The notes under the pieces: model-generated
Databases searched by the model: none
The model's input: only the letters and a program-made list of their open reading frames with translations
Told to the model about the DNA's origin: nothing
Translations under genes and position numbers: made by a program
Part shown: positions 1,050 through 64,000 of the stretch, piece by piece
Layout: the number at the start of each line of letters is the position of its first letter
Numbering within the stretch: position 1 is the first letter of the stretch
Origin: Takakia lepidozioides
Taxonomy: Eukaryota; Plantae; Bryophyta
DNA length: 64,000 nucleotides
Direction of reading: 5' to 3'
Assembly: GCA_030704615.1 (NCBI GenBank)
Contig: CM060732.1
Coordinates: 67,580,001 to 67,644,000 of the forward strand

Positions 1050-4000
1050 TCAAGCAACTCTACTTCGTAGCATATGGGGCGCAGTGGTGAACGCACGTGA
1101 AGGGGCCTTGGAGGCTTTGCTGAGAAGAGAATGACATCCTCGCATGTGCACCTTTAATGAATCTGGCTTGAATGTTCTACCACATTGCCTGCACCACAGT
1201 GTACATTGGGCCACTTTAAAAAAGTGCTGAAGTGTCAAATTATACACATAGCCTCGCCAGTTCTACTCCAGACAGCCCTGGAATGGCTGCAAGAAGCAGT
1301 TTATTAAAGACCAACTGAGACCAACAGCACACATGAGGATCATACATCTGTTTTCCAATAACCCAGTGTGATGTTGTCATCAAGGAAGTCCTTCTGTAGT
1401 AGCATCACATAACCAGACTCAGGGAATAGTTTCTTGGCAATGCATTTTGATGATTTGCTTGAATTCAGTACACTTATAGGAAATAGAGTGCACAAGAGAA
1501 GCTGAAATGGAGATAAAGGGCATCATGTGAGTACAAATACTTACGAGCACTCTTGTAAGATTTGTTTGAATCCGGGAGGTGGTAAGCTGTTGTTTACAGC
1601 CTCTTGAAGAGTCTTCTCCCAGTCTAGATTTGTTAATCCAGGTGTCAATAGCCTGCAGGACATAATAAACATTTATCAGACTTTTGGTATGTGGTGCAAG
1701 GAAACAAAATTTAGCACCTTGGTGATGCAAAGATTGGTACGTGGACGGAAGCATGACCATCAACCATAGCCATGTTAGAGGGAGTTTTTGAGCCCAGCAA
1801 CTATGATCGAAACGACCTTATCATCAACGTACTGAGTTGCAAGCTATTTTCCATCAGTCTGGGGGGGTAAGCAAAACCAGTGGCCTCTTCCTTGTAAATC
1901 ATGGCAAATGACAGAGATATGTGGTTTCCACCAGTTAACAAACACATTACTCCAACCTCCTTATTCATGGTGCACTTAGCCAACAATCATGCACAAAATT
2001 CTAGAAGTATCTGATTTTCATTATTGGCATCCCAGTCCTTCCAAGGCATGCTGCTCTCTTGTGACTCTTCAATAAAGAGAGAACCTGCATAACTTTATAA
2101 AGGTACTCTCCTTCTCTCTTTGTGATCTGGACCAAGGAATCACAAGCAAACATACAATAAAGTGGTAGAAGCTAATAGTTCAGAATCTGCACCTTTCATC
2201 TCTGCTTTTGAAGTCTTTCGGCTTTGGAGGATTTGGCACCACTTCTGACCATGGTACACTCACTATGGCACTTCTTTCTGTAGAGACAGTTGATTGCTTC
2301 ACTGTGCCACCACTATGTTTGTTGATGGAAAGTGAGGTTGGAGACACCTGAGTTGTAGATTCTTTTGAAGTGTGTCTTGAGGTTGGCAGTCTGGTGTCAT
2401 TGGTGCCTTTATGGAAGCCTGGAGGAAATGTCTTCACTTGAGTGGCAGAGATGTCCTTTGCAACTCCAGATTTTCTCTGTGGGGCCTTCACCGTCCTGGA
2501 TCCAGCACAGTAAGCTGACGTCAGATACATGGAAAAACCATTCTTCAGTGCAACTGATTTCAATTGAAACAGAAAGCAGTAACATCAAATACAATCAAAG
2601 GTGATCATGCTAAGGAAGTAACATGGCAACAAAGACATTTACCTGGTTATGGAGGTGCCCAAGTCCGCATTAGTAGACACAGATTCAGCTGATGTCTGTC
2701 GAGCTGCAGTCCTCTCCATGATGGTACAGTTTGATATTTCTTGCATTCTAGGCTGACTGGGAATGCAGCCAGCTTGTACTACTGTTTCAGCTTGGTGGGG
2801 GGAGTCTGCAGCTTTGGAGATATTTTGGGTGCATGTGACTGGCGTAGAGGGGGTCACAGGCCGCGAGGTCTTCATTTCAGACTTAAGCTTGACGGATTCA
2901 TCAGCAGCTTCTCTTTTACTATGTGGCACAATAACTTCCTCGATTATCCCAACATCTTTGCAGCCAAGGTCAAAGCCTTTATTGTCAATCACTTGGCAGC
3001 TAGATCCTCCGGAGCCTCCCAACGCGTGATTTTCTAAGATTTCATAGGCACACACCTTGCTCATCTTCCCAGATCTTTCAGAGGACGACTTGATCTCCTT
3101 AACCAATTTTGCAGATGCAGAGTTCCCCTCATCCTCCCATATGTCACAGGTCAGATTGCTCTCCTGTGATGATCTTTCAGAGACAGAGATAGATCTAAAA
3201 GGGGAGGGACGGAGAGTAGGATAGCTGGGGACAGGAACAACAGAAACAGATGGCTTCCGCATAGACATGCTCCCTGGTTTTCCAGGGGCAGACTTGTTCC
3301 TTGTCTGCTTGGACTTGCCTCCAGTACGCCACAGTGCCCAGATCGACCTGGCCGTGGAGGAAGACTTGGAAGATGGTTGCTCCAATTCTCGTGATATAGA
3401 CTGTGCTTTCAAAGAGTCGACCCCGCTGCTGCACATTAGCCTTGGCCGGAATACACCCAAGCAGGAAGGTTTCTGGCCTATGATTGAGACTGCTTCATCA
3501 TCCTTTAGTGAATCTAACGGAGGGCTCTTGCCGTCTAGGAATCCAAAAATACGCCTATCGACATCTTCTAAACTAAATACAGGAGGTACTTTCATGTTTT
3601 GAGTTCCAAATACAGCCCTCTGCACGGTACTCCTCTTACAAGTTTTCCTCTGTAAGGGGATTTCTGGTGCTGATGAAGCTAGGGCGAATGAGAAAGATGA
3701 GACAGCTTTCTTGGTGTGAGAGAGTTTCGTGGGGGCAACGACCTTTCCTGATTCTGCGGTGACCTCTTCATGGGGAGGGGACACGTCTCCCTCAGATGGA
3801 AAGGAACGGTAGTACATCGCTGGGGTGGAAACGCTATTTTTTCCTGCAACAAATGTTGATATTGTTGACCTCTTGACGATAATGTTGTCATTTAAATTGT
3901 TCCGCTCATTGAATTCGTCAAAAGGAACAGTCTCGCAGCTTGATGCATCACTCTGCTCTATGCTGCAAGCTTCGGGTGCAGATTTGGACTGTGAAAGGCT

Positions 4001-5208
4001 GTCCATAATCTGCTGGTTCAGATTCATGCTGCTATCTGAGGAGAGCTTTTTTACATCATCGTTCAGCAAGAAACTGCCAGAATGCGCTGAAGATGTGTTG
4101 CCTTCTAGTTGAAAATGCTTGGATTCAGTGCTGCGGATTGCAGACGTGATGCAGGAATCAGCTGCCCGAGACTTCCTTGAAATTCTCTTGCTTAGCGACT
4201 GGTACTCCTCATCGTGTTGTTCTCCTTTATCTGTCCAAAATAACTGACTTACAACACGTCCCTGCAGTACTCACTCTCCATGACATAGCTATATTTTCCC
4301 TGGTTCACATGGCCAGGCCACAGCTACATCTCTGACCAACTAGTACTCCTTGATCAACTGCTGAGACTGATTTTTCCTTGGTTTCAAATCATCCCTCAGC
4401 AGAATCCCCTACTCAAAATCAAAACATGAGGAACAGCATGCTGTAAATTACCTTGCCAGCCGTCAATAAGTTCTGAAGCTTTGAGGACAAATTCACCACT
4501 CCCCTGTAGAGGGCGAATTTCATCGTCTTCGCTCAAATCATGCCAAATGAAGGTGCTCTTATAGTTCCTGCAAGTACAAGGGGAATACAATTATGCGTGC
4601 AAGAAAGGTCCCCGGGTTCAACCTCAGAATGCCCCTACTTAAAAAGGTATGACTGTAGATCAATGCTGGCAGTACCAGGGATAATGTGATGCTCCTCACT
4701 GGCGAGTAGAGTTCAAACAGGTTTCGCTCGGACCTCTTAAGTAGTGCTGCTCAGCAGTATTGGAGGAGAAAGGGAACGAATTCAAAGATGACAGGGCCAC
4801 AGTCAAGCAGACCGGCCTCAAATAGCACAATCATTCAGCTAGCACAAGCAGATAGTTACCTTTGGTACGACCAAGAAAAAGAATCTGGCATTCCTTTTCC
4901 ACGAAGTGTCGTCAATCGTTTCTTCACATCTGCAATTTTGCGTAAAGCAATGCCAGCACTCAGTACGCCCTTTGTTTGGCAAACAATTGAATGTGGAAGT
5001 GATTAGACTGTTGAATCGGCAGTACTGGTTCTTAATTATAAAAGAGAACAGAAACCTAAAGAATGTCATAGTGATTTGTACCTCTCAAGCAAAGGCCCTC
5101 TTGGTCAGAGGGATAGTGGACCTCAATCATATGCGGATGCTCCAGTTGGCCACCCCGGCTCAGCTGATATACCACCTGCACCTTCGTCGAGGGCACTTGA
5201 CCTTTCAT
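1050..5208 (-). CDS. SOK: SOSEKI family polarity protein (N-terminal DIX-like/DUF966 domain, C-terminal C2HC zinc finger), 7 exons
   Basis: Phase-compatible GT-AG exons at 5208-5082, 4929-4860, 4567-4452, 4230-2643, ~2495-2193, 1652-1545 and 1188-1050. They splice to MKGQVPSTKVQVVYQLSRGGQLEHPHMIEV...LRDVKKRLTTLRGKGMPDSFSWSYQRNYKSTFIWHDLSEDDEIRP...EFVLKASEL (SOSEKI DIX-like) and ...LPPPGFKQILQECSQCGRTFKPDSLKVHMRGCH (zinc finger). The exon 5 acceptor is the least certain. Confidence 0.9.
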
Positions 5209-15101: not shown

Positions 15102-16050
15102 CTATTGATCAGCTCGAGCTCCACCGACAGACTCTTCATCTTCAGCCTCAATAACAATCCTGTGAAACCGTAGGTCTTTCTGCAACACAACCTTCCATCC
15201 CCGCAGGTTAGTGTCATCAGAAAAGAACACATGTTCTACCTGTGAGGGATAAACGAAGGATTGATCATACTCTCGAAGTGTTCGTGCAAAATTTGCAAGC
15301 AATAATCCATCCTCGTCCATTTTCATTGTAGCATTGCGATCTGTCGTGATGGCCTTCACCCATGTACACTTGAATAGAACAGGTCGTAGGTATCCTGCAT
15401 ATAATCAAACTCCATAATCTCATCGATAACCCCCATATATTTAGTAGATGCCACAATATGATTGCAATCACTTCCACCACTTCCTTCGAACTCAAAGACT
15501 GAAGTTACCCCTGAATCAAAGGTTATTTGTTCACGGGAACCAGTGGGTGACTTCCTGTAATGGTTGGTAAATATCATCACGGAGTTGTATGATTTTACAT
15601 GCAAAGAAGGTCGCAAACTAAGGCGGCGTATGTCCAACTCAACATTCAGCCCATTTCTAATATCATTGTCCATTGCCTCTAATAACCACTCCATAAAAGA
15701 AGACACTTCCTCTCCAACAACAAGGGCATTTGCTTTCAGGATATTATACCTTTGCAAATATGAAACAATGACTTCAGTATTCTGCAGCACATATGTGTGG
15801 GCTATATCCCTCAACAAGGGCGATATGTCTTTCTCAAGCTGACGTCCTTCCAAGACCTCACCACTTACTGACTCATCCTCGTTTTCGTCCCAAACACGAC
15901 GGACGGTGTGTTGGTATCTTGCAAGGTATTCAGTACCAAAATACAAGGGCTTTGTCTTTGGCGTAACCTTCTGCCATAGAGCCTCACCTTCATGTCCTTT
16001 AGAAACCTATCCATGGGATAGCACCATCTTGCCCCTACTGGCCCGCAATG
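15102..16050 (-). mobile_element. CACTA/En-Spm transposase C-terminal fragment (DUF4218/DUF4216-like), frameshifted
   Basis: ORFs YFGTEYLARYQHTVRRVWDENEDESVSGEVLEG...YMGVIDEIMEFDY and DEDGLLLANFARTL...FVYPSQVEHVFFSDD...GWKVVLQK resemble the CACTA TnpD C-terminus. No termini were found nearby. Confidence 0.75.
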
Positions 16051-36778: not shown

Positions 36779-36950
36779 GTATTGTTTTGTTCAATGGTTG
36801 CAAATCAGAATTGTACATTTTGAGTTTGGTGACCCTGTTAAGTGTGGCAAGAATCTTGTTGTCATGACAAACCTTTGTATGAGTATCGAGGAGCCTCGAC
36901 ATATTATATGTGAATTCGAGCATAAACAGCTGTAATTCTTAGTCATGCAG

Positions 36951-39315
36951 GAGGGCAGAGTTGAATCAGGCACAGCCCGCCGTTGGACATCAGACTGGGT
37001 GCAGAGGTAGCACCTGCACCCTCACCACTGCCTTTGAAAGAGGAGCACGAGGGGGAGTAGACAAGAACTTGTCCGACACTTGTTGGGATGTGAGGACACT
37101 ATGTAGGGCAGGAAAACTGAAAGAGGCGCCACACATTTTGAATCAAGGAGGAATTCGGGCCGACTCCAACACATATGCTTGTATCTTGCAGGTGTGCATC
37201 AATGCAAAAGACCTAGCAGTGGGAAAGCAGGTGCACGTGCATTTAGTCCAAAGCAGATTCAAGCCAAACATCTTTCTACTCAACACCCTTCTCAATATGT
37301 ATGCTAAGTGTGGGAGCATGCTAGATGCACGTCAACTGTTTGACGAAATACCTGCACGAGATGTATCAACGTGGAATATATTGATATCAGGATATGCCAA
37401 GCATGGGTGTGGTAGGGAGGCTTTCAAGATCTATGAGCAAATGCAGTGGGAAGGTGTGACACCCAACGGGGTCACATTCATCTGCATTCTCAATGCATGT
37501 AGCAGCCTAGGAGCTCTGGAAAAGGGCAAAGAGGTCCATGCTGACATCATCAAATCTGGACTTGTGCCTGATATCATTCTGGAAACTGCCCTTGCTGACA
37601 TGTATGCCAAATGCAGGAGCCTACTAGATGCACGTCAAGTATTTGACAATATGGCCAAACGAAATGTGGTCTCATGGAATGCCATGATTGCAGGATATGC
37701 TCGGCATGGGTGTGGTGGGGAGGCGTTTGAGCTCTATGAGAAAATGCAACGGGACAGGGTCACTCCCAATAAGATTACATTCATTTGTGTTCTCAATGCA
37801 TGTGCCATCCTAGGGGACCTCGATAAGGGAAAGGGTGTCCATGCTGACATTCTCTCAGCTGGAATTGCACCAAATATTGTGTTGGAGACTGCCCTTGCTA
37901 ACATGTATGCCAAATGCGGAAGCATGAAGGATGCACATCAAGTGTTCAACTGTATGGCCAAACGAAACGTAGTCTCATGGAACACCATGATTTCTGGATA
38001 TGCTCAGCATGGCTGTGGTAGAGAGGCTTTTGCAATCTTTGAGGAGATGCAACAGGAAAGGGTGGAGCCCAACACAGTCACCTTCACTTCTGTTTTCAAT
38101 GCGTGTGCCATCTTGGGAGCCCTGGAATTGGGCAAGGAGGTCCATGCTGACACCATCAGAGCTGGAATTGTGCCAGATATCATTCTGGAGACTGCACTCG
38201 CTGACATGTATGCCAGATGTGGGAGCATGAAGGATGCATGTCAAGTTTTTGACAGTATGGCTCAACGAAATGTGGTCTCATTTAATGCCATGATGGCTGG
38301 ATATACTCAGCAGGGGTGTGGTAGGGAGGCTTTCAAGATATATGAGCAAATGCAACGGGAAGGGGTGACGCCCAACAGCGTTACATTCGTTTGTGCTCTC
38401 AATGCTTGTGCCAGCCTAAGAGACCTGGAAAAGGGCAAAGAGATCCATGCTGACATCATGAAATCGGGGTTTGTGTCAAATCTTAGTGTGGGGATTACAG
38501 TTGTTAACATGTATGCCAAATGCGGTAGCATAAAGGATGCACGTCAGGTATTTGACAACATGGCTGAACGAGATGTGGTCTCATGGACTGCAATGATGGC
38601 AGGATATGCACAGCAAGGTTGTGATAGGGAGGCTTTTGAGATCTATGAGCAAATGCAGCGGGAAGGGGTGACGCCCAATGGGATCACATTCATTTGTGTT
38701 CTCAATGTTTGTGCCAGCCTAGGAGCCCTGCAGAAGGGCAAAGAAGTCCATGCTGACATCATGAAAGTAGGGATTGCTTCAAATATTAACTTGGAGAATA
38801 GCATTGTCGACATGTATGCCAAATGCGGGAGCTTAGAGGATGCACGCCAAATTTTCATGGAGATGTCTAAACGAGATATTGTCTCATGGAATGCCATGAT
38901 CGCTGGATGTGCCCAGCATGGTTGTGGGAGGGAGGCACTACAATTACTTGAACAAATGGAGCAGGAAGGCTTGAAGCCAACTGCAATCACCTTCATCTCT
39001 CTTCTCTCTGCATGTAGCCATGTGGGCCTAGTGGATGAAGGCCGTCACTACTTCGAATCCATGAGTCGTGATCATGGCCTCACCCATGACTTGGAGCATC
39101 TTGGCTGCATGGTGGACGTTCTCGGCCGTGCAGGGCGATTGGAAGAAGCAGAAGACTTCATTAATGGAATGCCAATCAAACCTCATGCTGGGCTATGGAG
39201 GGCCTTGCTTGGTGCCTGCAAAACTCATGGCAACTTGGAGGTAGCAGAACGTGTGGCGAAGAGCATTCTCAAGAGTGATCCACAGGAATCCACAGATTAT
39301 GTGGCTCGATTATGA
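36951..39315 (+). CDS. PLS-class pentatricopeptide repeat protein with truncated E domain and no DYW (organellar RNA-editing factor type)
   Basis: 784-aa ORF with six L-S-P triplets (MYAKCGS..DA...F..M..RNVVSWN.MI.GYA.HG) at 303-nt period, then L2/S2 (LSACSHVGLVDEG; CMVDVLGRAGRL) and E1 (WRALLGACKTHGN). It stops within the E region. Confidence 0.93.
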
Positions 39316-42181: not shown

Positions 42182-42958
42182 CTACACTGAAATATTAAAG
42201 GACTCCCGCAGGCGCTCCAGCTCCAAATACGCGGTACTGTATGGCAGAAACATCGCTGAGTGCTCGTCCGCAAGCTCCCGAACACCACCCGCGAGCTTAG
42301 GAATCGCTGCAATCTCGTCATAGGTCAACTCCCTGACAAATCGAGCAGGGTTTCCAGCCCACAGCTCGCCAGATGGAACGCGCCGGCCAGGGGCCAATGT
42401 CGACCCCGACCCGAGCACGGCATGGGTCTCCACTAAGGAACCCTCCATCAACACGCACCGCTGGCCCACCACACTTTCATCATCTATTGTACATGATCTA
42501 AGCGTGCTGAAGGCCCCCACTGTCACAAATTTGCCGATCGAGGTTTCCGCAGGGAGCCCAGTTGGAGAAGTGGCTGCAGCATGGAGGACACACTTGTCCC
42601 CGATATTGGACGAGAAACCAACAACAATGCGGTTCAGATCCCCTCGCAGCACACACCCATACCACACACAAGCCTTGTCCTGCACGTCCACAGCGCCAGC
42701 AAGCACGGCGTTGGGGGCAACCCAAGCATCCACAGCCACAGTGGGTACTAAGGTCCCCAAAGGCAGCTTGCTTCTTTGCCCCTTATAGTCCCACTCAACG
42801 TGATACTTTGTCGACGCCTGCCGAGACTGTTGGGTTGATGGAGGGGACGGTGATGAGGAGGAAGATAACAGCGACAGTGAGGAAGAGGAATGTGCTGAGG
42901 TACTCCGAATAAGGGTGCGAAGCAGCTTCAATCTCCCACGCAGTGCCAGTGCCGCCAT
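42182..42958 (-). CDS. GAMMACAL: Gamma carbonic anhydrase-like protein, mitochondrial complex I subunit; intronless
   Basis: Arg/Ser-rich presequence, then WDYKGQR, VAVDAWVAPNAVLAG, VLRGDLNRI, SPTGLPAET, ELWAGNPARFVR and FLPYSTAYLE, which are characteristic of the CAL subclass. Confidence 0.93.
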   Translation of the reverse strand: MAALALRGRLKLLRTLIRSTSAHSSSSLSLLSSSSSPSPPSTQQSRQASTKYHVEWDYKGQRSKLPLGTLVPTVAVDAWVAPNAVLAGAVDVQDKACVWYGCVLRGDLNRIVVGFSSNIGDKCVLHAAATSPTGLPAETSIGKFVTVGAFSTLRSCTIDDESVVGQRCVLMEGSLVETHAVLGSGSTLAPGRRVPSGELWAGNPARFVRELTYDEIAAIPKLAGGVRELADEHSAMFLPYSTAYLELERLRESFNISV

Positions 42959-43943
42959 AGCTGAGCTCCCGAAGCTCTCTCGTCTTCGTCTCTCTCGTCT
43001 TCACAGGGAAAGGGCCCCACTTCCTTATTCCAACAGCATTTTCTCTCTCTAATTTTCCATTCCCTTGTTTGATTTCTGGAGACTCATTGGTGGGTTATTA
43101 GTGAGTTCTTAGGGGCTTAGTAATCACAGTGGGATTTGTGATATAAGAAATCACTTGATCCGCGGAGATATATTGTTGGGCTCTGAAGTGGGGAGCATTT
43201 ACATGTCACCCCAGAACTGTGTTCCTTTTGGGGTTAACATGATACCTAGGTTAACATGATACCCTACCATACATACTTCCATGGCAGCGCTCAGAATCAC
43301 AGACAATTGTGAATAACTTGGGATGGATTCCTCTTGCTTTGAAACACAGTAAGTAGTTAGCAAGATGAATTTGCTCAGTTGGTTCAAACTCCGAGTTCAG
43401 GTGGAGTTTGCAGTGCTTGCCTGTGGACTTACTACAATAGCTACTTGACACTCTTTCAAGACAGCCAAGTTTGGTCTAATTGCATATCAATATTCATGAC
43501 AGAAGACAAGAAGCACAACTGGTGAACATGAGCATTCAAGACTCCACTTCAGATCTCAAATGGGGATGAAAGATGGTACAGCCATGGTGCCAGTATAGTG
43601 AAGATATACCGTGCACTGCATTGATTCTCAGGCCGTCTAGAATTAATTTTCTTGAAAACCATTTTACATTTGTGTGCTTTGTCACATGAATTCTGCAACA
43701 TCCCAAGATTAACACAGATGCTACAAGGCTTTAAAGAATATCATTACAACTTCATGACTGTATAATACTGCGCTCTCCATCACTAATAATACAGAGGACT
43801 TCCCAAGTGCATAAGAATAACAGGCGGGGTAGCATTTCAGGTAGGTCAGATGCCACCCCATGTCATTCTTGGCAGATTGGAAGGGATCTCCAACAAACGT
43901 AACTTTTCACATAGCTGATAATTTGAAGGAAAACCTAGCCAAA

Positions 43944-53315: not shown

Positions 53316-53419
53316 GTACATACCTATGATGCATAGATACATAAGTTGTTGAAACAACACAACTTTAGAGAGAGATTGGTCATGACAAGTTTTGTCAAAA
53401 TTACTTTAGAGCTTCACCA

Positions 53420-53852
53420 GTCATAAACAAACAAAATAAAAAATGGAAGAGGACAGATTTTGGGATCTAACTTTTTGACATCTACAATTTGGTTCGCAAT
53501 GAACCTTGAAAAATACTTAGAAAATCAAGCTACCCTTCCAAAGACATATCACGCACTATCGTGAATGGATATAACAATAAACAAGGGGCCAAAATGTAAA
53601 ACAAACTCAAACTGCCATAAACAAACAAGATGAAAATGGATGGGTTCAAATTTTGGGATCTAACTTTCTGACATCAATCTGGTGGGCAATGAAACTTGAA
53701 AACAAAGTAGACAACCAAGCTACATCTCCAAAGATGTTTGTCAATTTTGCCTTACTTCTGGCCTCTTCTTTCTTGTCAACTCTATCAATGCAAGTATATG
53801 ATATGTATTTGGAAAGATAGCTTGGTTGTCTAATTTTGTTTTCAAGTTCATT
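53420..53852. repeat. Tandem plus inverted (foldback/MITE-like) repeat, cut off at the CACTA terminus
   Basis: Two direct ~120-bp units at ~53420 and ~53613. 53688-53733 is the reverse complement of 53808-53852. Confidence 0.65.
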
Positions 53853-54480
53853 CACTACAACAGATGAGCGTTTTTATGACTTCACATATGACTATTTTTT
53901 CAGTCTTATATGCGTTCATGACTACATCACTCTGTAGTGAAAAAAAACCCTGTCATAGCGACTAGTCTTTAGGACTGCGTTTTGCAAGTCATATCTGTGA
54001 CTGCTTGCGTGGCACCTGGTGTCCTGCTGCAGAGAGGGTTGCAGTCACAACTATATGACTAATATATGACTACATTGTCTGTTGAGCGCTGCCTACATGG
54101 AGAGGCTTCAGCGGGACACGTGCGCCACTGCGCAAGCGACACGTCATGCATTCGTCAGGGGATCATATGACTATATGTCTGCAAAGTGATGCCTACATGG
54201 AGAGGCGATGGATGGACACGTGCGCCACTGCGAATTTGACATGTCACGACTTCTTGCCATGATCATATGACTACATGTCTGCACAGTGACTGGAGAGTTG
54301 TTAGCGGGACACCTATTGCACTTGAAATGTGACATGTGGCACACAGACAAATATATGACTAGCATATATGACTACGGATCTTTACACGTGGTGAAAATAT
54401 GGATAAAGAATGACGTGTCACATACTGCCACGTGTTCTGGTTTGAGCAGGAGTGATGCCACGTGTCATCAAGATTGTTTT
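53853..54480 (+). mobile_element. CACTA-type DNA transposon terminus with subterminal repeats (element extends rightwards)
   Basis: Begins CACTACAACAGA exactly where the flanking hairpin arm stops, followed by repeated ATATGACTA/TAGTCAT units in both orientations. The other end is not seen in the window. Confidence 0.7.
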
Positions 54481-55012: not shown

Positions 55013-56206
55013 TCAGAATGTTTGTACCTTCACAGTAGCAGTGTTGTATGGTTGTTGTCCGAAAACAGGCTGAGACTCCAAAAACTTGGGAATACTGGCA
55101 GCTTTCGATGCCTTCCACAAAAAAGGCCACAACACCTCTGTTAGATACTCATCAGTTCGTGAATCTGGTTGCACTTTCCATGGCTCTGGAAAAATCCCAC
55201 TGAAGGGAGGATTGTTTGCCGCCTTTCTTGGTGTGTCGTCAACAAGAACAGTGTCCTCATAAGTCCATTCTGGCCAGTCTGCCCACACTCTAGACAAGTT
55301 CTTGAAATATAATGGTTTTGAATCAGACCCCTTACGGCATGGGAGGACTGGATCCTCGTCACAGTGAAGAGCATCCCACTGGAAAACCAGCTTAGTGTGG
55401 GCTGCAAAAATATAGTCCACCATTGGGAAGAAGTTGCGAGCTTGGCAACAAGACCACACCGCCACCTCAAAGTGTTCAAAACACTTTTGCAAAAAGTCAT
55501 AACAATGTGGTCTCAAAACTACCATCTTCTTGCCACACATCTTCCCCACAAAACCTTTGGGAAGGGATGCAGGCCCATTAGCAGAATGAAAAGATTCACA
55601 TAACAGACCATTTAAGTCCAGAATTAGTAAATGCTTCCTCGCTGGTCCAGGAAGTAAACTGTCATTTGGCTTCAACATGTGAGCAGGAGAAATTAAAGCA
55701 ACCTGCTTGTTTGTTTTGTCCCCGTCTGCATCTTCCTCCCCATTTAAACTCCCACATACCTGCATACCAGAATCCAGTGTGCCCGGCAGCTCTGTCACCA
55801 TTGCCCCCTGGACTGCTACTGCCTTTGTACGTGGCAAGGGCTGAATTTCCACGTGTACCTCACAGTTGGCCTTCCCTGTATCCTGCTGCTGCTCGGTCAA
55901 ATTCAAAAGATCATTAGTGACAGGAAGACATAAGGGCTTAGAGTGAGCACTAGTTACCGTCTGAAATTGGGATTCCAAACATTTTGATACTGTCACAGCA
56001 GACGCATCCATCGTAGATGTCACTGGTCCTACGCCTGGTAGATTAATCCCCAATCTGGCCACAATGGCTTTCTGGTACTCAATCATGTTCTGCATCTGTA
56101 ATTTTAAGTCTGCCATGTCACGTCCTTGTGATTCCACCAGTTTGTCCAAGCCATCCATCCTGCCAACTACTGTAGAATATGCGAGACTTCCCTCCTGCCA
56201 ATCCAT
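55013..56206 (-). CDS. FCP1/SCP (NIF, HAD-superfamily) phosphatase-like ORF inside the transposon nest
   Basis: HLLILDLNGLL (motif I variant), LRPHCYDFLQKCFEHFEVAVWS, KPLYFKNLSRVW and TVLVDDTPRKAANNP, with an N-terminal short coiled coil and low-complexity region. Confidence 0.82.
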   Translation of the reverse strand: MDWQEGSLAYSTVVGRMDGLDKLVESQGRDMADLKLQMQNMIEYQKAIVARLGINLPGVGPVTSTMDASAVTVSKCLESQFQTVTSAHSKPLCLPVTNDLLNLTEQQQDTGKANCEVHVEIQPLPRTKAVAVQGAMVTELPGTLDSGMQVCGSLNGEEDADGDKTNKQVALISPAHMLKPNDSLLPGPARKHLLILDLNGLLCESFHSANGPASLPKGFVGKMCGKKMVVLRPHCYDFLQKCFEHFEVAVWSCCQARNFFPMVDYIFAAHTKLVFQWDALHCDEDPVLPCRKGSDSKPLYFKNLSRVWADWPEWTYEDTVLVDDTPRKAANNPPFSGIFPEPWKVQPDSRTDEYLTEVLWPFLWKASKAASIPKFLESQPVFGQQPYNTATVKVQTF

Positions 56207-56608
56207 GAAAACTTGCCCAAGTATCAGCGTAGCTATGGCGTGAGCCCAGCCCCGTGAGCCTGGGAGCTGAGCTCACATTGCAAAGCGTGAGCGGCACAAA
56301 TCTGCTGGAGAAGCAGGCCTATAGGCGAGGATTGCAAGAAGAGGGCCTATTACCGTGGACAAAACAAAGAGGGCCACCATGCACCATGTCTGCAATGCCT
56401 GCACAAAAAGAGGAATATGAAAATATGGCAGAATTGAGCTCAGAATGATTGACAAACTTTATTTCAATTCACAGATAGACGCTTACAATGAATGGCATGT
56501 GCATTTGCCCTGGTTCCGTGAACGAAATATATGTGTTTGTCCTAAATGCAAAGTCTTCACACGGTAACCTGGAAACCAGCGTGGGAAGCGGGCATGGCTC
56601 GTATGTGT

Positions 56609-58543
56609 TCAAAGAGAATTTGGCGGAGCCCTACGTGAGGTGTCCCGCTGCAGAAGGGTGATGACTTCTCCGTAGCCTAGTGTGGCTTGGTGAATGAATT
56701 GGTCTCTCTTACCGTCGCAACACATAATTACAAGGTATATGTAATATTGATGCTTGCAGGGGACCCACTTCCCTCTCATGCCGAGAGCGCCCTCACGCAT
56801 CGTTACAAAATCCGGACAAGTGCAAGTAGGAAAATTCCCCACGGTAACCTGATATTCTTTGCCATGAAGAACTGAGCCAATAGACGGCACTGTGTAAATC
56901 CGTCCATACCCCAGGGCAGGGACTTCGGTGATACGAGCCACCCGAGCCTGCAAAATTCTAGCCGATTCCATCTTGCATTCGTGATCTGCACCCGAAGCGA
57001 CACGGCGCACTGTTTTTCCATCTCTTTTTGTTGGGTGGGAGTCGGCACCGGGTGGAGGCATTGCCGGAGCATGTGGCACATCTATTCCGACAGTGCACAA
57101 GGGCATCACCCGGGACCATGCAAGACAAAACCCTCCCTCCTCCAGCATGCTTATCTCGGTTGTTGACAGCGACGTCCCAAGTTTCACAGGCCAAATTGCG
57201 GGGGGAGGGGGTTTCATTATCACCGAAGGACGAACTGTTCCCTTGACGCATCATGCCATATCATCTGGGCAGAACCAAAACTTGTGGTCCTTTGACTCCC
57301 CACTATGATAAGGTCGGAACAACCCTGTGAATGTTGGAGCTGGAGTCCCCCTGGAGCCTTTGCATATTTTTTATTTGCATTTCTTGAAAGAGGGGGTCCG
57401 AATTGCCATGCAAGCAACTCTAGATCCTGGTGGGGTGCGTTCTATATGCCACTCACTATCAATGCAATCAAATTCCTGCACCATGGCCACCACCTCCTCC
57501 AATGGGATTCCTGCTGCTGTGCTTACATGTTCTGCACCTGCTCCACTAGAGGAGGACCCACCTGGGAAGGGGCTGGCACACGACTTAGTCTGCACTGGCG
57601 ACACCTTTGGCACAGAGAAATTGACCATGTCTGGGCGATGGGAATCTCCATCTGACCCTGGAAGAGTGTTCAATTTCCTTTTGCATGATCCAAATCTTTC
57701 CTCGCCTTCCAAATGAGGGAGCCTGGATTGCAAAGGGGAGCATTCAGTGCACCTGTTCAGAGCTCTGGCCATCTTCGATGGGTCTCCGGACCTACTCGCA
57801 GCCCTTAGCATCAACAAAGTCGTACCGGGGCCCTTGCCTCCACCCCGTCCCATCAGAAAATTGCGGTACCTGGTTTGTTGTGTAAGTGCCCGCACCATGT
57901 CATCTCCTCCAAGGACATGTCCTATAGGAGGCATAGCACGGAAATGTGAGGAACGAAAGGAAATGGAAGAGGTTCTGCAAGCGACAATCCAAGAACCCCA
58001 AATGAAGAGGCACGATGCAAAATTTGTGATTTTGGGATTCAAGAGGCTTACCGTCGTCATGAAAGCTCCCCACTGTCTGAATCTGAAGTGCCAGAAAACC
58101 AACCAGTCCTCCAACTCCTTCAGGTGGATACCAGTAGCAGCACCAGAGGAGAACCACCAAGCCCGGATTGCATGGTAAGTGCTCTCAGCTTCTCCCATTG
58201 AGGTGGCATTTTTGTACTTGAGACAGAGCCTTCTGTGCTCCAACTGAAGGTCAGGGCGAATGCAGCGCGCGCCGCACTGCATTGAAATTTGCCTGTGCAC
58301 TATCAGCCATGAAGCCCGCAAAATTTGTGTTCTGTACTCCATTGCGCTGCATGACGGCCAGGAGCGAATTCCACATGAGCATCTGGGATTCAGTGTCCTG
58401 CGACTGCATATCACAAATTGCTATTGAGAGCACACGCTGGTACGCTGGATCATACACATGGCACGCCATGGTTGTCCAACCCTTCACCCGTTTGCAGTGA
58501 TCAAACATCAACCAACATTTAGCCAAATCCTGCTGATTGTCTT
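56609..58543 (-). mobile_element. SWIM zinc-finger (MULE-like) transposase, disrupted; 5' part displaced by the LTR retrotransposon
   Basis: WLMFDHCKRVKGWTTMACHVYD...CDMQSQD...FMADSAQANFNAVR (candidate catalytic Asp motifs), WLVFWHFRFRQWG, and SWIM CTCPDF...WVPCKH. There are frameshifts between segments. Confidence 0.75.
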
Positions 58544-59026
58544 TGTCGTGCGCATACATATCGCTACACAACTACACCGCTGTCCAAACCACACCACAAA
58601 CCAACGAACACACTGTTTACACAAAACATGAAAACCAAACCATCACTCTTAGAAATAGTAGTCGAGCCAGGGGCACCCCAAGCTATGGGGACTCCACCCC
58701 ACAACAACCTACACTCCCATCATGAGTACACTCAGATCTAAACGCATGCAGGAGCTCGGTCGCGCAGGCTCAACTCGAGAAAGATGAGCCGCGCGACTGC
58801 CGCTCTTGTGAAGATAAGACGGACCAGGTGTCAAACTAAACTTGACATCTGATTTAACACTTGACCTAAATCCAAGTGTTAAATACAAATAACTAGTTTT
58901 ATTCTAGCTGTTTTCACACTGTGCTTATTTAACTTGACAGGTGTCGTGCGCATACATATCGCTACACAACTACATCGCTGTCCAAACCACACCACACATA
59001 TATGCACAATAAAGTAGTCTGCCACA
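58544..59026 (-). repeat. 3' LTR (483 bp) of the Ty3/gypsy element
   Basis: On the minus strand it starts TGTGGC directly after the polypurine tract GCTAGGGGGGCGAT (59040-59027) and ends ...GCACGACA. Transposase codons resume immediately afterwards. Confidence 0.75.
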
Positions 59027-59286
59027 ATCGCCCCCCTAGCTGGTGGATAGGTCCCTCTACCTCCAGATAGCTACAAGATGAAATAGCCACAACCGTACTA
59101 AGTCCTCCATCACTGTCCCTATTGTACTCAAACTCTATAGACCAAGAGGCCGGGTACAAGAGTAGCCCCATCGTTAGTCGCCGTCTTGCAATCTGTGAAC
59201 TTGAGCCAGGATCTCGTGTGTTCAAGGTCTCCTAGTAGCTGGGCCTTGCGTTTCTTGTTAGCCTTCCATGGTTGTATCCACTCCCA

Positions 59287-62200
59287 CTATCCAATGCAAT
59301 GTGGACATAACCAATCCCCATCTGGAACCATCTCAAGAGGTGGAGTCAAGCATCCCATATGCCAACCTCTAGAGCGTCGATCACACACCAACATGGTGGC
59401 TGCCCCTTTAGCAGACCCACACAACATGCACCTCAAACCTGCAGATACCACTGCCAGGTTTGGGTCAATCCTGCCATCGACATTTGGAAGGTGACATGGC
59501 GCACAATTACGCACATGGTCCTTCCAAGTTATGTCATCCCGACCCTCCAAGACCAAGACGCCTGAGGGCAAGACCTCTCGAACCCTCAAAATAACACGTC
59601 ATGCAGTCACATCCAGGGTTGTAGGAGCAGTCTGCTGCAGATAGACATAGTCACCAGGGTTGAATCTCCGAACCCCAGGACGATAGCCCCCACCACGTAT
59701 GGTAGCATACCTCAACGTATCACGGTGTTGTGCAATGGGCAAGGTTCTCGAAAGCCATGGGCATGACTCTCTTGAACAACTCTGCACGCTGCTCACATGC
59801 ACGTGCCCACACGTCCGGATCGTCAAGGTTAAGAACTGTAGCAGCTTCTCTGCGAATGGATGTAGGCAAATCCGGCTCTCGGCCAAAGAGAAGAAAGTAT
59901 GGTGAGAAGGAGGCAAGTGATGCTTGCTTGCTGAACCTGTAGCCCATGGCTAACCAGGGTAACTGAAGGTCCCAATCTCCTAGGTGTCCCTTCTGCAAGC
60001 CATACTTGCGCAAACCCCTCTTTACTGTCTGAACAACTCTCTCTGCCAAGCCATCGGCCTCAGGATGATCCCGAGAAGTGGTGCGGTGGTCTATCAAGGC
60101 CTTGTCACACAAAGCCTGAAACTCCCCCAAGAACTCTCTCCCTTGGTCCGTGAGTACCTCAGCTGGAGCACCGAATCGGCTAAGCACACAATCCAGGAAT
60201 GCATACGCAGCTCCCTCACTAGCCTTATCAGGCAATGGAACCAATTCAATCCACTTGGAGAAGTGCTCCACCATCACCAACACGTACTTGTTGTGGCGCA
60301 TGGTCAGTGGCAACGGCCCTGCGAAGTCAAGACTCCACCTGTAGCCCAATCCCATGATCGGAAGAGGGTGCAATTGTGGAGTAGGGGCGTTGAATGAAGC
60401 ACGCACCCTGTCACACACCATGCACCTAGCCACAAATTGTTGCACCTCTGTGTGCATACCACGCCACCAATACTGCCCCTGCAGTAGACTATGAGTGCGT
60501 CGCACCCCAAAATGCCCCAACTCCTCATGGGCATGGCGCACTAACCGTGCCCGCTGTGTTGGGTGAGGCACAATCCTCACTCGACCATCCTCCCACACTC
60601 GGAGCAGGTGTGTCCCCTCCCACTTGAACCTCTTGGCTCGTTGTAGGATCCGATCCCTCTCCTTGGCAGTCACAGTGGCTGTCGTGTCTCCAGTGCGGAG
60701 GTAGTCCAACACAACTGAATCCTCATGTATATCTTTGGCGCCACCTTGCTCATTGCTGGCCTCAGGGTCCTCAGACACTTGATCTACAGTCATCCCTGTT
60801 GCAGGTCCAACCTGGCCTTCCGCTGCCAAGATACACAGAAATGCAGATGCATGCCATCCGGGCACCATCTCCTCGTCCGTCTCACCATGCCACCGAGCTC
60901 CAGTGTCATCCTGTTGGCTCGTGCATGGATTGCGACTCAACCCATCTGCATTGCGATTGACCAAACCCGGTCGATGCACCACCTGAAAGTCATACTCTTG
61001 AAGGATGAGTGCCCACCGTGCAAGCTTCCCCGTAAGCTTGTCTGACTCCATCAACCACTTGAGTGGTTGGTGATCCGTGACAAGGGTGAAGAGATTGCCG
61101 TATAGATAGCACCTGAAGTGTGCCACGGCCCACACTGCAGCTAAGCATTCTCCCTCATATGAGCTATACTTAGACTCTGCAGCATTGTTCGAGCGGCTAG
61201 CATAAGCCACTACGAACTCTCTTCCCTCATCATCCACATGTGTGAGCACCGCTCCAAGCCCCAGCATGCTCCAATCTGTATGCAGCTGAAAAGGACGCCC
61301 CCTGATAGGTCGTCTCAAGATGGGCGCCGAGGTCAACCTCGCCTTGAGCTCTTGAAAAGCTTGTTCTTGCTCATCTTCCCACTGCCACTCCTGGTCCACC
61401 TTGGTCAGCTTGGTTAGAGCCTTTGCAATGGCACTAAATCCCTTAACAAACCGTCTGTAATAGTTTGCTAACCCCATGAAAGCTCGAACTCGGCTCACAT
61501 CCGTGGGGCGTGGAACCTGTGCAATGGACTCTACCTTAGTCTGCTGTACCCCCAATCCTCCAGGATATATCATGTGACCCAGATACTCAATCTGGTTGTG
61601 GAAAAACTTGCACTTTCCCGGATGTAACTTCAATCCGTGCCCTCAAGCGCTCAAATACCCCTGAAGGTGTCTCTCATGCTCCTCCACCGTAGCACTAAAG
61701 ATGATGATGTCATCTATGTAGCACCGAGCAAACTCCACCCCTGCTAGAATCCTGTCCATGACTCTTTGAAACTCAGCGGGAGCGTTTTTAAGCCCAAATG
61801 GTAAGAACCGCCACTGGTATAGGCAATCCTTCCCGTGCTCATTGATCCCCCAGAATGCCGTCTTTTGCTTATCCGCCTCCTTGATCGGCAACTGGTGATA
61901 TCCGGATCGTAAATCCAACGTGCTAAAGACCTTGGAATGCCCAATGGCATCAAAGATCTCCTCTGGTGTCGGCATGGCATACCTATCGGACTTGGTCTGA
62001 CGATTTACAGGCCGGTAATCACCGCACATACGTCTCTCCGTCCAATTGCCATAGACATCCTTCTTAGCTGGCATCACTGTGGCTGAAGCATACTCTCCAC
62101 CAGAGAGCTCCACCAAACCTGCCTCCCAGAGATCTTGAGTCCTCATCTGAATCAAAGACCTCTCCATGTCACTGTATCTATAGGGTCTCCGAAAGATTGG

Positions 62201-62419
62201 CGTGTCAGTGGCCAACTCAATACGGATCTCTTGACCCTTCAGTGCTCCCAAGTCCTTCAAACTGAAGGCAAAGCAATTCCTGTAAGCCCTCAGGAACCGC
62301 CGTATACGTCGTCTCTCTCCTCCGGTGACAATGGGTCCAATGTCAGGCTCCCAATTGTCCTCCGTAACTGCAACCTTAAGTCCAGTGGGCTTAGAGGTAG
62401 AGGACGCGTCCCGTGGTTG
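59287..62419 (-). pseudogene. Pol region RT-RNaseH-integrase-PHD finger with three disruptions
   Basis: ORFs 61643-62260 and 59720-61633 are in the same frame (TGA at 61643). There is a 1-nt frameshift near 59740, an in-frame TGA at 59599, and a PHD at ~59290-59435. Confidence 0.9.
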
Positions 62420-63991
62420 CTATGCTGCAACCTCTTGAGCAGTACTCCCTTCCTGCTCAGTCAATGACAAGGCCTCATCCTGCCCCATCATCTCATCATT
62501 GAGAACCTCCTCATCCCGAGAAGAATCCCCAACCTCATCCATCACAGCTGCCTTCGCTGCCAACTCCCTCTGAACCTCGAGCACCTCCCACGTGTGCCAT
62601 GGATGTCTACACCCCGTGGTCCTCACCGGCTCGCCCCCACTCGCTGCCTGTACCGTCTCGGTAGGCAGAGAGACCGTCAAGGGAAGTGCACTCCGCACTC
62701 TACGTTGCTCAGCCATAGCCAAGCTGACAATCCAGGTCAAGCAATTGAGATCCATTGCTTGCCCCAACACCTGACGACGTGATGCCTCAGAAAGAGAAGG
62801 CACCGCCGTGGTCCCAGTGGAAAACCCCATAGCCCGCTCTCGCTCGTCGGCATTAGGCTCCACTAACTGCTGCAACTGAGCATCCCACAGGAGGCCAGGT
62901 CCACCATCCCGAAAAGCATGGGATCCTGGGAAGCTGAGCAGTGTAGGTAATGCTGCTCGTGGTTGACCCACCCTGTTGACCACTGCCAAAGGCGAACGGT
63001 CATCGTGTCTCACACGTTGAGACTGCCTTCCTGTGTCCAAAATGCCATCCACGGTGAGGTGTGCTGGCCGCTGCACCCCATCAAATGCACGCTTGAGCAG
63101 TGCGGGTGGCATCAAGTTAGTCCACCATAGTCGTGGACGATGAGCCCGTGACCCCACTGCAGCTGCATCCAGCAATACTGCTGACCCAAGCCACGACCGG
63201 ACTTGATGCACACTGGCCATCACCCTGGCCCGAGAATCACCCATCAGTGGTACATTCTCCAAGATGTATGCTGGAGATACAGCTTGATGAAGCTGCAAGC
63301 AGCGCAAAATCCGCACCATCTCCCAAAACAGACCCGTCCTCGAGTCTCGCAATCCATTGCCATGCCCGGCTGATGAATGCCCTTGGCAGGGCCAACCTGC
63401 CACTATCAGATCAATGGAGCCAACCTGCTCCAAATCTTGCGCCCCCAACAAGGAAATGTCTGCTGGCAAGGCTTGTTGGTATCCACGAACTGCAGACACA
63501 GGCAACAAGTCAGGGTACTGCTGTACCAACTGAGCCACATGGCGCAGTGAGACGCGTCGTGCAGTCTCATCCCTCTCCACATACAGGTAACGCCTTACCC
63601 GCACACCTGCCTGTAGCACAGCAGCCAATCCGGTGCTGATCCCGCCAAACAAGTCCAGAAGGCAAATGCCTTCATCCGGCCGCTGCCACACAAGAGGTGT
63701 GGTGTCCAATGGCGACAACTGAGGTGGCCCTGGTGCAATCACCGCACTCTCCTCCTCTCCTGACGGTACAAAAGCTTCTACCCAAGCTTGTTGCACCCGT
63801 CCATCAGCAGCTTGCTGCAAATCCTTGCTCGTACCCCACAACGGAGTGTGAGCAACCATGGCAGGCAACTCCGCCGTACCATGCATGTCATCCTGCTCTG
63901 CTGGAGGTGGCACATCCTCTGCATGGGCATTGCCTTCCAGCAACTCTCCAGGCCAACTAACTGCAGCTGTGAAGGCGGCTAGTGTTGGCAT
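62420..63991 (-). CDS. Retrotransposon-encoded C5 cytosine DNA methyltransferase domain (~62730-63670), DNMT3-like motifs; ORF open to the window edge
   Basis: Motifs in canonical order: I LLDLFGGISTG, II YVERD, III ADI, IV IVAGWPCQGHSSAG, V RTGLFWEMVRIL, VI YILENV, VII LDAAAV, VIII AHRPRLWWTN, IX ERERAMGF, X RRQVLGQAM. Confidence 0.92.
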   Translation of the reverse strand: MPTLAAFTAAVSWPGELLEGNAHAEDVPPPAEQDDMHGTAELPAMVAHTPLWGTSKDLQQAADGRVQQAWVEAFVPSGEEESAVIAPGPPQLSPLDTTPLVWQRPDEGICLLDLFGGISTGLAAVLQAGVRVRRYLYVERDETARRVSLRHVAQLVQQYPDLLPVSAVRGYQQALPADISLLGAQDLEQVGSIDLIVAGWPCQGHSSAGHGNGLRDSRTGLFWEMVRILRCLQLHQAVSPAYILENVPLMGDSRARVMASVHQVRSWLGSAVLLDAAAVGSRAHRPRLWWTNLMPPALLKRAFDGVQRPAHLTVDGILDTGRQSQRVRHDDRSPLAVVNRVGQPRAALPTLLSFPGSHAFRDGGPGLLWDAQLQQLVEPNADERERAMGFSTGTTAVPSLSEASRRQVLGQAMDLNCLTWIVSLAMAEQRRVRSALPLTVSLPTETVQAASGGEPVRTTGCRHPWHTWEVLEVQRELAAKAAVMDEVGDSSRDEEVLNDEMMGQDEALSLTEQEGSTAQEVAA

Positions 63992-64000
63992 CTTGCCCCG

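Follow-up and report, generated by a model that had tools for sequence, protein, structure and literature searches.

The stretch of DNA analyzed here, called the window throughout, comprises 64,000 nucleotides of the moss Takakia lepidozioides (GenBank assembly GCA_030704615.1, contig CM060732.1, positions 67,580,001 to 67,644,000 of the forward strand). From position 58544 to its right-hand edge the window holds, on the minus strand, a Ty3/Gypsy retrotransposon of a high-copy family that encodes its own DNMT3-type C5 cytosine methyltransferase (Table 1). Pfam matches along this strand begin with the methyltransferase and continue with reverse transcriptase (RT), RNase H, integrase (H2C2 and rve domains), and PHD finger; the series from RT onward follows the order of Gypsy elements and bears out the Gypsy assignment of a first-pass annotation made from the sequence alone. 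The complete Gypsy series of protease, RT, RNase H, and integrase is read with its protease in relatives alone, the gag, protease, 5' end, and first repeat (A1) of the window copy falling beyond position 64000. The RT is nearest to Ty3-type enzymes; in L036, an intact related locus, the second open reading frame (ORF2) has Ty3-G Gag-Pol as its best match among solved structures (E value, 4e-98). Relatives also carry the marks of DDE-type integration, namely, TG...CA ends and a short target duplication, of which the window displays the CA end alone. Two whole long terminal repeats (LTRs) in the form of terminal direct repeats were not found, and the elements instead end as A...B-A-B or A...B. 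The right end proposed at 58544 by the first-pass annotation therefore stands, marked by a 55-nucleotide (nt) repeat (58544-58598 and 58942-58996), while the ordinary LTRs it had assumed give way to split direct repeats.

Table 1. Features of the methyltransferase-bearing Gypsy element in the window (positions numbered from the first letter of the window)
Feature	Position	Strand	Evidence or remark
ORF1, 3' part, open at the window edge	62423-64000	-	Intact relatives: Gag-CCHC-protease-methyltransferase, ~1,250-1,450 amino acids (aa)
DNMT3-type C5 methyltransferase domain	62690-63676	-	PF00145, E 3.5e-13; DNMT3A match; structural model; Foldseek; invariant columns
Methyltransferase catalytic codons	63388-63386 (Cys), 63259-63257 (Glu of ENV), 63139-63131 (RxR)	-	Sequence
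In-frame amber TAG with CAR-YYA hexamer (TAG CAA CCA), predicted readthrough site	62414-62422	-	Stop at 62422-62420
ORF2 start: linker and reverse transcriptase (YIDD at 61720-61709)	61646-62419	-	PF00078, E 9.7e-22
RT lesion: two small indels flanking a stop at 61645-61643	61638-61657	-	Other copies differ here
RNase H	60992-61381	-	PF17917, E 2.2e-35; PF17919, E 9.1e-33
Integrase zinc-binding domain and DDE core	60062-60562	-	PF17921, E 2.1e-16; PF00665, E 2.3e-14
Integrase C-terminal part, disrupted (frameshift near 59737; stop at 59601-59599)	59599-59737	-	Comparison with other copies
PHD finger closing ORF2, one zinc-ligand position (59376) altered	59296-59430	-	PF00628, E 2.3e-9
Polypurine-tract-like G run directly before repeat B1	59028-59040	-	Like tract in relatives
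Repeat B1, ending in CA	58942-59027	-	Repeat comparison; 98% identity to B2 over its final 55 nt
B1/A2 junction GACA-CC-TGTC, palindromic CA-NN-TG	58936-58945	-	Halves equal the two element ends in complete relatives
Repeat A2, predicted match to A1 beyond the window	58629-58939	-	Lower border by analogy with relatives
Repeat B2, right element end, CA at 58545-58544	58544-58628	-	
Predicted 4-bp target-site duplication, partner expected beyond the window	58540-58543	-	By analogy with relatives

The window copy is dead, given the breaks in its RT and in the C-terminal part of its integrase together with the altered zinc ligand of its PHD finger; a comparison of contigs shows that other copies differ at these positions. 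Between 58300 and 64000 the window is matched by 62,389 and 65,302 contig pieces in two runs from one sample, with variants throughout, although these pieces are assembled contigs, not long reads, and their summed depth is not equal to copy number. A single contig of 5,009 nt from another organism covers 59022-63978 at ~95% identity with 238 differences, and a protein from a 5,009-nt contig (P0482, 95% identical) stops short of the junction between methyltransferase and RT. Misassembly or a one-off capture is ruled out by this spanning contig and by relatives with the same domain. None of the three refuting outcomes named by the first-pass annotation was observed in the sequences compared: relatives carry the domain, a contig spans the junction, and the ratio of nonsynonymous to synonymous substitution (dN/dS) is low between lineages. 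A DIRS element is ruled out by the DDE integrase and the target duplications, and tyrosine recombinase, the hallmark of DIRS and PAT elements, is absent by Pfam from the ORFs of L036, which have an rve integrase and 4-bp duplications instead.

The C5 motifs of the methyltransferase stand in unpermuted order, which rules out a permuted enzyme of the DRM type. As the first-pass annotation had read them, the ordered motifs retain their catalytic residues (C97 of PC, E140 of ENV, R180, and R182), and all four are invariant across an alignment of 30 sequences. Searched against solved structures with phmmer, the domain matches DNMT3A best (E value, 7e-11), ahead of HhaI (3e-4) and DRM2 (6e-4). A structure predicted from 76 sequences reached a mean confidence (pLDDT) of 97, and Foldseek matched this model to DNMT3A (E value, 7.7e-20; TM scores, 0.72/0.83), the matches listed being all DNMT3; matches in the ESM Atlas fell in generic C5-methylase clusters alone. 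Judged from its sequence and modeled fold, by pairwise and structure matches in place of a tree of host families, the enzyme is DNMT3-type. It shares fold and catalytic motifs with the host enzymes DNMT3A and DNMT3B and differs from them in its low identity (~21% to DNMT3A), in its lack of PWWP, ADD, and introns, and in its fusion to Gag and protease. Of 39 full-length ORF1-like proteins, 38 contain FGG, PC, ENV, and RxR together, with PC being no test here because this set was chosen for G-W/F-P-C. No chromatin-reading domain was found in ORF1 by Pfam.

Between lineages, dN/dS of the methyltransferase is 0.13, 0.11, and 0.17, and that of the RT is 0.04 (two computable pairs, dS being saturated for most pairs that involve the window copy), so that the methyltransferase evolves about three times faster than the RT (0.11-0.13 versus 0.04). 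Higher methyltransferase values of 0.34-0.94 among decayed copies of a family of the peat-moss type are read as decay after insertion, since the RT is also raised (0.16-0.60) in the same pairs. These sequence comparisons indicate that the methyltransferase is under purifying selection and is a conserved component of the element.

A search with the domain recovered 893 representatives at an E value of ≤1e-10. The near relatives with names come from Calypogeia fissa (75% identity) and Marchantia polymorpha (Mp4g09160, 75%; Mp8g17980, 72%; and many more), and Sphagnum relatives reach 69% identity to the window domain. A metagenome scan found 194 relatives and yielded 80 loci; viral contigs gave one weak match (L081). 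A tree of 128 domains, midpoint rooted, built without host enzymes and leaving out 39 domains of unknown layout, unites the elements with the methyltransferase before the RT in one clade (support, 0.998), places the window domain in a clade with Marchantia and peat-moss-type loci (1.0), and separates a larger group in which the domain lies between RNase H and integrase. The RT tree repeats the grouping of the methyltransferase tree. Among 161 proteins with the full domain, 29 end within 200 residues past it (some perhaps at contig edges), 11 continue into RT (two of them Marchantia models that omit part of the linker), 82 have the second layout, and 39 are unclassed.

Several of these relatives deserve mention in their own right. 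In the second clade (P0009, P0019, and others; 82 of the 161) methyltransferase, RNase H, and integrase share one ORF with a PHD finger, a layout that does not appear in the portions of the transposon DNMT literature cited here; one of its proteins is labeled Scenedesmus, and a protein labeled Chromochloris (P0414) also matches the domain. Mp4g09160 is a full-length ORF1, and four Marchantia models that cluster with it (P0382, P0383, P0389, and P0390, i.e., MpVg00370, MpVg00540, Mp5g06330, and Mp5g06860) have 1,280-1,281 aa; two of the four are encoded by the V sex chromosome, and each is annotated as hypothetical. P0410, 51% identical, sits on a 2.4-kb contig in a bacterial genome bin and is likely eukaryotic DNA within that bin. 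The best solved matches of the PHD finger (8053-8187 in L036, and its counterpart in the window) are CHD4, PHF12, and PHF21A. CHD4 and PHF21A bind unmethylated H3K4, as does the ADD domain of animal DNMT3. P0018 has a PTM/DIR17-like Tudor domain behind its PHD finger (E value, 6e-8).

In the window copy an in-frame TAG (62422-62420, minus strand) splits the methyltransferase from the RT. The first-pass annotation had placed the methyltransferase inside pol as part of one polyprotein, citing a shared reading frame and 53 open codons between the two domains; frame and codons are as it gave them, and the TAG directly precedes those codons. In 53 of 81 loci the end of the methyltransferase and the start of the RT are present together; the linker is frameshifted in 12 of these, and a TAG or TAA occupies the homologous site in every one of the 41 that are in frame, counts that overstate independence because one decayed family is dominant and insertions are repeated. 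When the peat-moss-type family was examined with an anchored search, 54 of 55 sites had a stop. In L036 a single TAG parts two unbroken ORFs, one of 1,369 codons with a Gag-like region, zinc knuckle, protease, and methyltransferase and one of 1,047 codons running from RT through PHD, and the Marchantia and Calypogeia proteins terminate 73-75 residues past the domain. Across these sequences the stop is a feature of the family rather than a lesion, and its conservation between methyltransferase and RT makes ORF1 a Gag-protease-methyltransferase.

The bases that follow the stop resemble a known signal. In tobamoviruses the type I readthrough signal has the consensus UAG CAR YYA (PMC3542737), and type I readthrough reaches 6-10% in stable Arabidopsis lines (PMC2754532). 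The window and L015 have TAG CAA CCA, L036 and L038 have TAG CAG TTA, and L050 has TAG CAA TCA, three exact contexts that spell three amino acids and one nucleotide consensus. Exact UAG with CAR-YYA thus stands between the two ORFs in four of five lineages, and the context of the peat-moss-type family (TAG CAA CCC) agrees at five of six bases. The flanks of the stop are only 22-52% identical in 9 of 10 pairs among the window, L015, L036, L050, and L006, and as a background, 4 of the 1,414 TAGs in the window are followed by CARYYA. RNA folding 3' of the stop gave z-scores of -0.6 to -2.7 against mononucleotide shuffles and no shared structure, and we therefore claim no pseudoknot or stem. Taken together, this pattern makes it very probable that the conserved stop undergoes programmed readthrough, with RT, RNase H, integrase, and PHD finger likely made as the minor readthrough product. 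The resemblance is to tobamoviruses, benyviruses, and pomoviruses, in which UAG with CAR YYA likewise has the polymerase downstream of the stop (PMC3542737, PMC2754532); unlike theirs, the predicted bryophyte signal lies in a retrotransposon. In gammaretroviruses, gag-pol readthrough depends on a different signal, a UAG-G pseudoknot (PMC3542737).

Complete relatives show how the element ends. Their parts run A1, inner part, purine tract, B1, A2, and B2, opening with TG and closing with CA, where A is ~340 nt and B ~115 nt long, A1 and A2 are 91-93% identical, and B1 and B2 are 91-94% identical. A 4-bp target duplication is perfect at five of seven distinct sites and retains three of four bases at the other two (the seven come from nine rows, L028 being dropped because its contig ends in A2 and L074 and L077 being one site). 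B1 and A2 are separated by 2 nt in 7 of 7 loci, which creates a palindromic CA-NN-TG; in three of these loci decay has turned the TG into TA. L036, L050, and the window (58945-58936) have this junction too, behind the purine tract. The tract precedes B in 14 peat-moss-type loci and follows ORF2 in L036 and L050, and the joint of A2 and B2 consists, at 6 of 6 loci (one of them with one change), of the A end run directly into the bases that open the stretch past the tract, an arrangement to be expected had the two cDNA ends been joined. No B stands ahead of A at any of 24 5' ends. Integration from end-joined complementary DNA (cDNA) is suggested by the split repeats, the 4-bp duplications, and the palindrome halves that equal the element ends, and we consider such an intermediate fairly probable on this evidence. 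End-joined cDNA is ordinarily seen as a dead end. The B-A-B form was found in six loci and a single-B form (A...B) in eight; the latter could arise from cleavage of both palindromes, from recombination between B1 and B2, or from assembly collapse. As B-A-B alone retains A at both ends, it would be the only form able to replicate again.

The bases right after A1 pair with positions 160-179 of A; among 24 loci the pairing is perfect (18 of 18) at 5 and reaches 17 of 18 at 2 more, against at most 16 in controls. In L036 an unrelated sequence gives the same arrangement, a perfect 16-nt pairing located 26 nt past a TATAAT, the RNA start being a TATA-box prediction. A primer site for an iMet-type tRNA was not found in any of the five loci examined. 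Pairing of the predicted RNA 5' end with the bases directly behind A1 would fit self-priming like that of the Tf1/Tf2 group of Ty3/Gypsy elements, in which bases after the 5' repeat pair with the RNA start. Tf1 itself has ordinary LTRs and no methyltransferase.

These features can be assembled into one account of the life cycle. Gag-protease-methyltransferase would be the major product and build the particle, while about 1 ribosome in 10, by analogy with tobacco mosaic virus, would pass the stop and supply RT and integrase; the protease would then release the methyltransferase within the particle. The element RNA would prime its own reverse transcription, and the cDNA, expected as B-A...B-A by standard reverse transcription, would have its two ends joined, whereupon integrase would open it with a two-base stagger at the CA-NN-TG palindrome where B meets A to give A...B-A-B. 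The methyltransferase would place 5-methylcytosine on the new cDNA, and a PHD finger would steer integration on chromatin. Methylation of the cDNA is proposed on account of the position in the Gag ORF, the intact catalytic core, and the activity of SymbioDIRS-Dnmt3, which methylates CG de novo in yeast (PMC5890265); a cDNA marked in this way would arrive as a pre-methylated insertion and be treated as ordinary silenced DNA. As a whole, the account of a Gag-protease-methyltransferase ORF1 with a leaky stop and an enzyme packaged at capsid levels that likely methylates its own cDNA is one that we favor with moderate confidence.

A number of observations weigh against this account. Expression, readthrough, and methylation are all predicted from sequence, and conservation of the stop rests on the loci of relatives, the stop having been read in one copy within Takakia; decayed members of one family make up most of the loci, and several loci repeat a single insertion in different samples. 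At the ends, B1 and B2 of the window differ wholly over their first ~30 bases (58997-59027 and 58599-58628) and are 98% identical over the last 55, as if B2 had been taken from another template; the A-B-A...B form expected from a simple two-LTR circle occurs at 0 of 24 5' ends; and pairing behind A1 is no better than in controls in 17 of 24 decayed loci. The CpG observed/expected ratio of the element is 0.53, compared with 0.25-0.94 in 2-kb bins of the window, so that the element is not poorer in CpG than host DNA and bears no mutational trace of extra self-methylation. Depletion of CpG and CHG does not set the element apart from host DNA. Finally, the isolated methyltransferase domain of KnitGypsy-Dnmt3, an element of the alga Klebsormidium nitens, gave no methylation in yeast, a result its authors call inconclusive (PMC5890265).

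Other explanations share part of this evidence. With the same layout and readthrough, the enzyme might act in trans in the nucleus, methylating genomic copies or the target site and so limiting the element or shaping heterochromatin. A dose at the level of Gag would far exceed the need of one cDNA, de novo methylation in moss is carried out by host DNMT3 (PMC10952607), and de Mendoza et al. named slowed transposition as a possibility (PMC5890265). ORF1, however, is without a chromatin-reading domain. As is general among retroelements, fusion to Gag keeps the enzyme in the particle, and the DNA within reach there is the cDNA. We regard action in trans as unlikely, if the strongest of the alternatives. 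A role other than DNA methylation (nucleic-acid binding in the particle, methylation of the RNA genome, or a decoy for host proteins) would accommodate the yeast result, the evolution of the domain at about three times the pace of RT, and the want of extra CpG loss in the element; set against these, no aligned sequence departs from the catalytic Cys, Glu, or either Arg, the four motifs occur together in 38 of the 39 ORF1-like proteins, and the fold is nearest to DNMT3A/B, which leaves such a role improbable.

Two further possibilities concern the stop itself. It might truly end ORF1, with pol arising through reinitiation, through splicing, or from a transcript of its own and the hexamer kept for some other reason. 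The peat-moss-type family, the commonest among the loci, departs from the consensus by one base (CAA CCC) and has an AUG at codon 3, two facts that also count against readthrough; an in-frame Met precedes the RT start in L006, L015, and L050 (at codon 14 in L050), and some Marchantia models (P0282 and P0286) connect both parts through predicted splicing. Yet the first Met after the stop lies inside the RT in the window (codon 85) and in L036 (codon 117), the frame is preserved over the stop in 41 of 53 loci, variation falls on exactly the R and YY positions of the consensus, and the spliced Marchantia models remove differing parts of the linker, so that a true stop has little probability. Least plausible by far is the single continuous polyprotein of the first-pass annotation, with the TAG as a mutation of a dead copy. 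The window copy does have other private lesions, and the more distant proteins P0015, P0052, P0314, and P0317 do fuse methyltransferase to RT. None of the 41 in-frame close relatives lacks the stop, though, and intact L036 has it; on this comparison of sequences, a single polyprotein is refuted for the bryophyte clade.

The closest known system is KnitGypsy-Dnmt3, and the bryophyte family likely works alike. The kinship that the first-pass annotation drew with the Klebsormidium case is supported by shared Gypsy domains, an intronless, unpermuted Dnmt3-type domain, purifying selection, and DIRS-like split repeats (A1...B1 A2 B2). The DNMT of KnitGypsy-Dnmt3 is described as belonging to the Pol ORF, which also encodes RT and RNase H (PMC5890265), whereas the bryophyte domain closes a gag-protease ORF ahead of a conserved stop and has a land plant as host; as sharing of an ORF with RT was not found in the bryophyte clade and the comparison is by description, we do not class the family as KnitGypsy-Dnmt3 and keep the two apart. 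Readthrough, self-priming, and a palindromic junction are not described for KnitGypsy-Dnmt3 in the text of that report available to us (PMC5890265), and no Klebsormidium-labeled sequence was among the matches listed. SymbioDIRS-Dnmt3 and SymbioLINE-Dnmt of Symbiodinium are likewise retrotransposon-borne Dnmt3, although these are DIRS or LINE elements of dinoflagellates and are treated as an independent acquisition (PMC5890265). EpiLTRs and DAM-LTRs (Fernandez-Moreno et al., bioRxiv 10.64898/2026.05.21.726589) are LTR elements that also combine a DNA methyltransferase with a chromatin reader; their DNMT, unlike the one described here, is sister to DNMT4 and is accompanied by DAM and a chromodomain, the hosts being Cymbomonas and Euglena.

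In the sections available, that 2026 preprint speaks of "streptophytes (Gypsy-DNMT3)" and has no mention of Marchantia, mosses, or bryophytes, and a 2025 survey (PMC12344493) names "streptophytes and dinoflagellates" only. The available text of PMC10952607, PMC8557442, and bioRxiv 363937 contains no such element; the last of these describes Marchantia met1 mutants, whose transposons are derepressed. A literature search that included six Marchantia gene names, with subscription journals and repeat databases outside its range, found no land-plant report of a Gypsy-borne DNMT3. Among plant retrotransposons, soybean SIRE1 has a like readthrough signal for its envelope-like ORF.

A host gene in the window points to a bryophyte, likely an early-branching moss. 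An uninterrupted gamma-carbonic-anhydrase-like ORF (42182-43000, minus strand) encodes a protein that groups with mosses and liverworts (support, 96) in a tree of 27 of the 120 matches listed, which bears out the embryophyte host supposed in the first-pass annotation; it is sister to mosses at a weak support of 52 and shares 80% identity with Sphagnum, compared with 65-72% with liverworts. Bacterial contamination is ruled out by the host genes and by matches named as bryophytes. Of the two host genes named previously, the pentatricopeptide repeat (PPR) gene is confirmed by Pfam as a long gene at 36943-39315 (plus strand), and SOSEKI stays a tentative label, the ORF at 2639-4270 having no SOSEKI match.

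Other mobile DNA may lie nearby. The retrotransposon interrupts a coding-like stretch (56609-58543, minus strand) that resumes at 58543, a region also densely covered by contig pieces, and near it is a SWIM-like zinc finger ORF whose E value of 0.06 is below the cut-off; we take the stretch to resemble a decayed Mutator-like DNA transposon. Beside the SWIM ORF, an intact ORF of 419 codons (55013-56272, minus strand) resembles an NIF/FCP1-like phosphatase (E value, 6.6e-17) and is possibly cargo, while 53414-54390, possibly the end region of that element, holds dispersed repeats ~100 and 194 nt apart as well as an inverted repeat of 45 nt (53688-53852). An ORF of 216 codons (15356-16006, minus strand) has no Pfam match; by eye, it is presumably akin to a fragment of a CACTA transposase.

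Retrotransposon-borne cytosine methyltransferases have been described from algae (PMC5890265). What appears to be new here, from the sequences compared, is the range into land plants, the position on the Gag side ahead of a probably leaky stop of plant-virus type, and an end structure that suggests self-priming and cutting at a palindrome. The leaky stop shifts the expected dose of the enzyme, which would accompany Gag rather than the scarce polymerase, and the end structure suggests that an integrase of the retroviral type employs end-joined cDNA. Because the genetic model Marchantia polymorpha contains the family, with several gene models of full ORF1 length, the role of a transposon DNMT becomes directly testable. 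Inventories of bryophyte methyltransferases include unrecognized transposon copies that are labeled hypothetical genes. As a broader and still tentative proposition, which we hold to be possible but short of probable, this would be an old Gypsy lineage of streptophytes, still living in mosses and in liverworts such as Marchantia, that packages a DNMT3 at capsid stoichiometry by means of a leaky stop of plant-virus type, primes without tRNA, passes through an obligatory end-joined, circular cDNA that a DDE integrase cuts at an internal palindrome, and delivers its insertions pre-methylated. If this is true, the element would provide bryophyte genomes with a mobile source of de novo methyltransferase.

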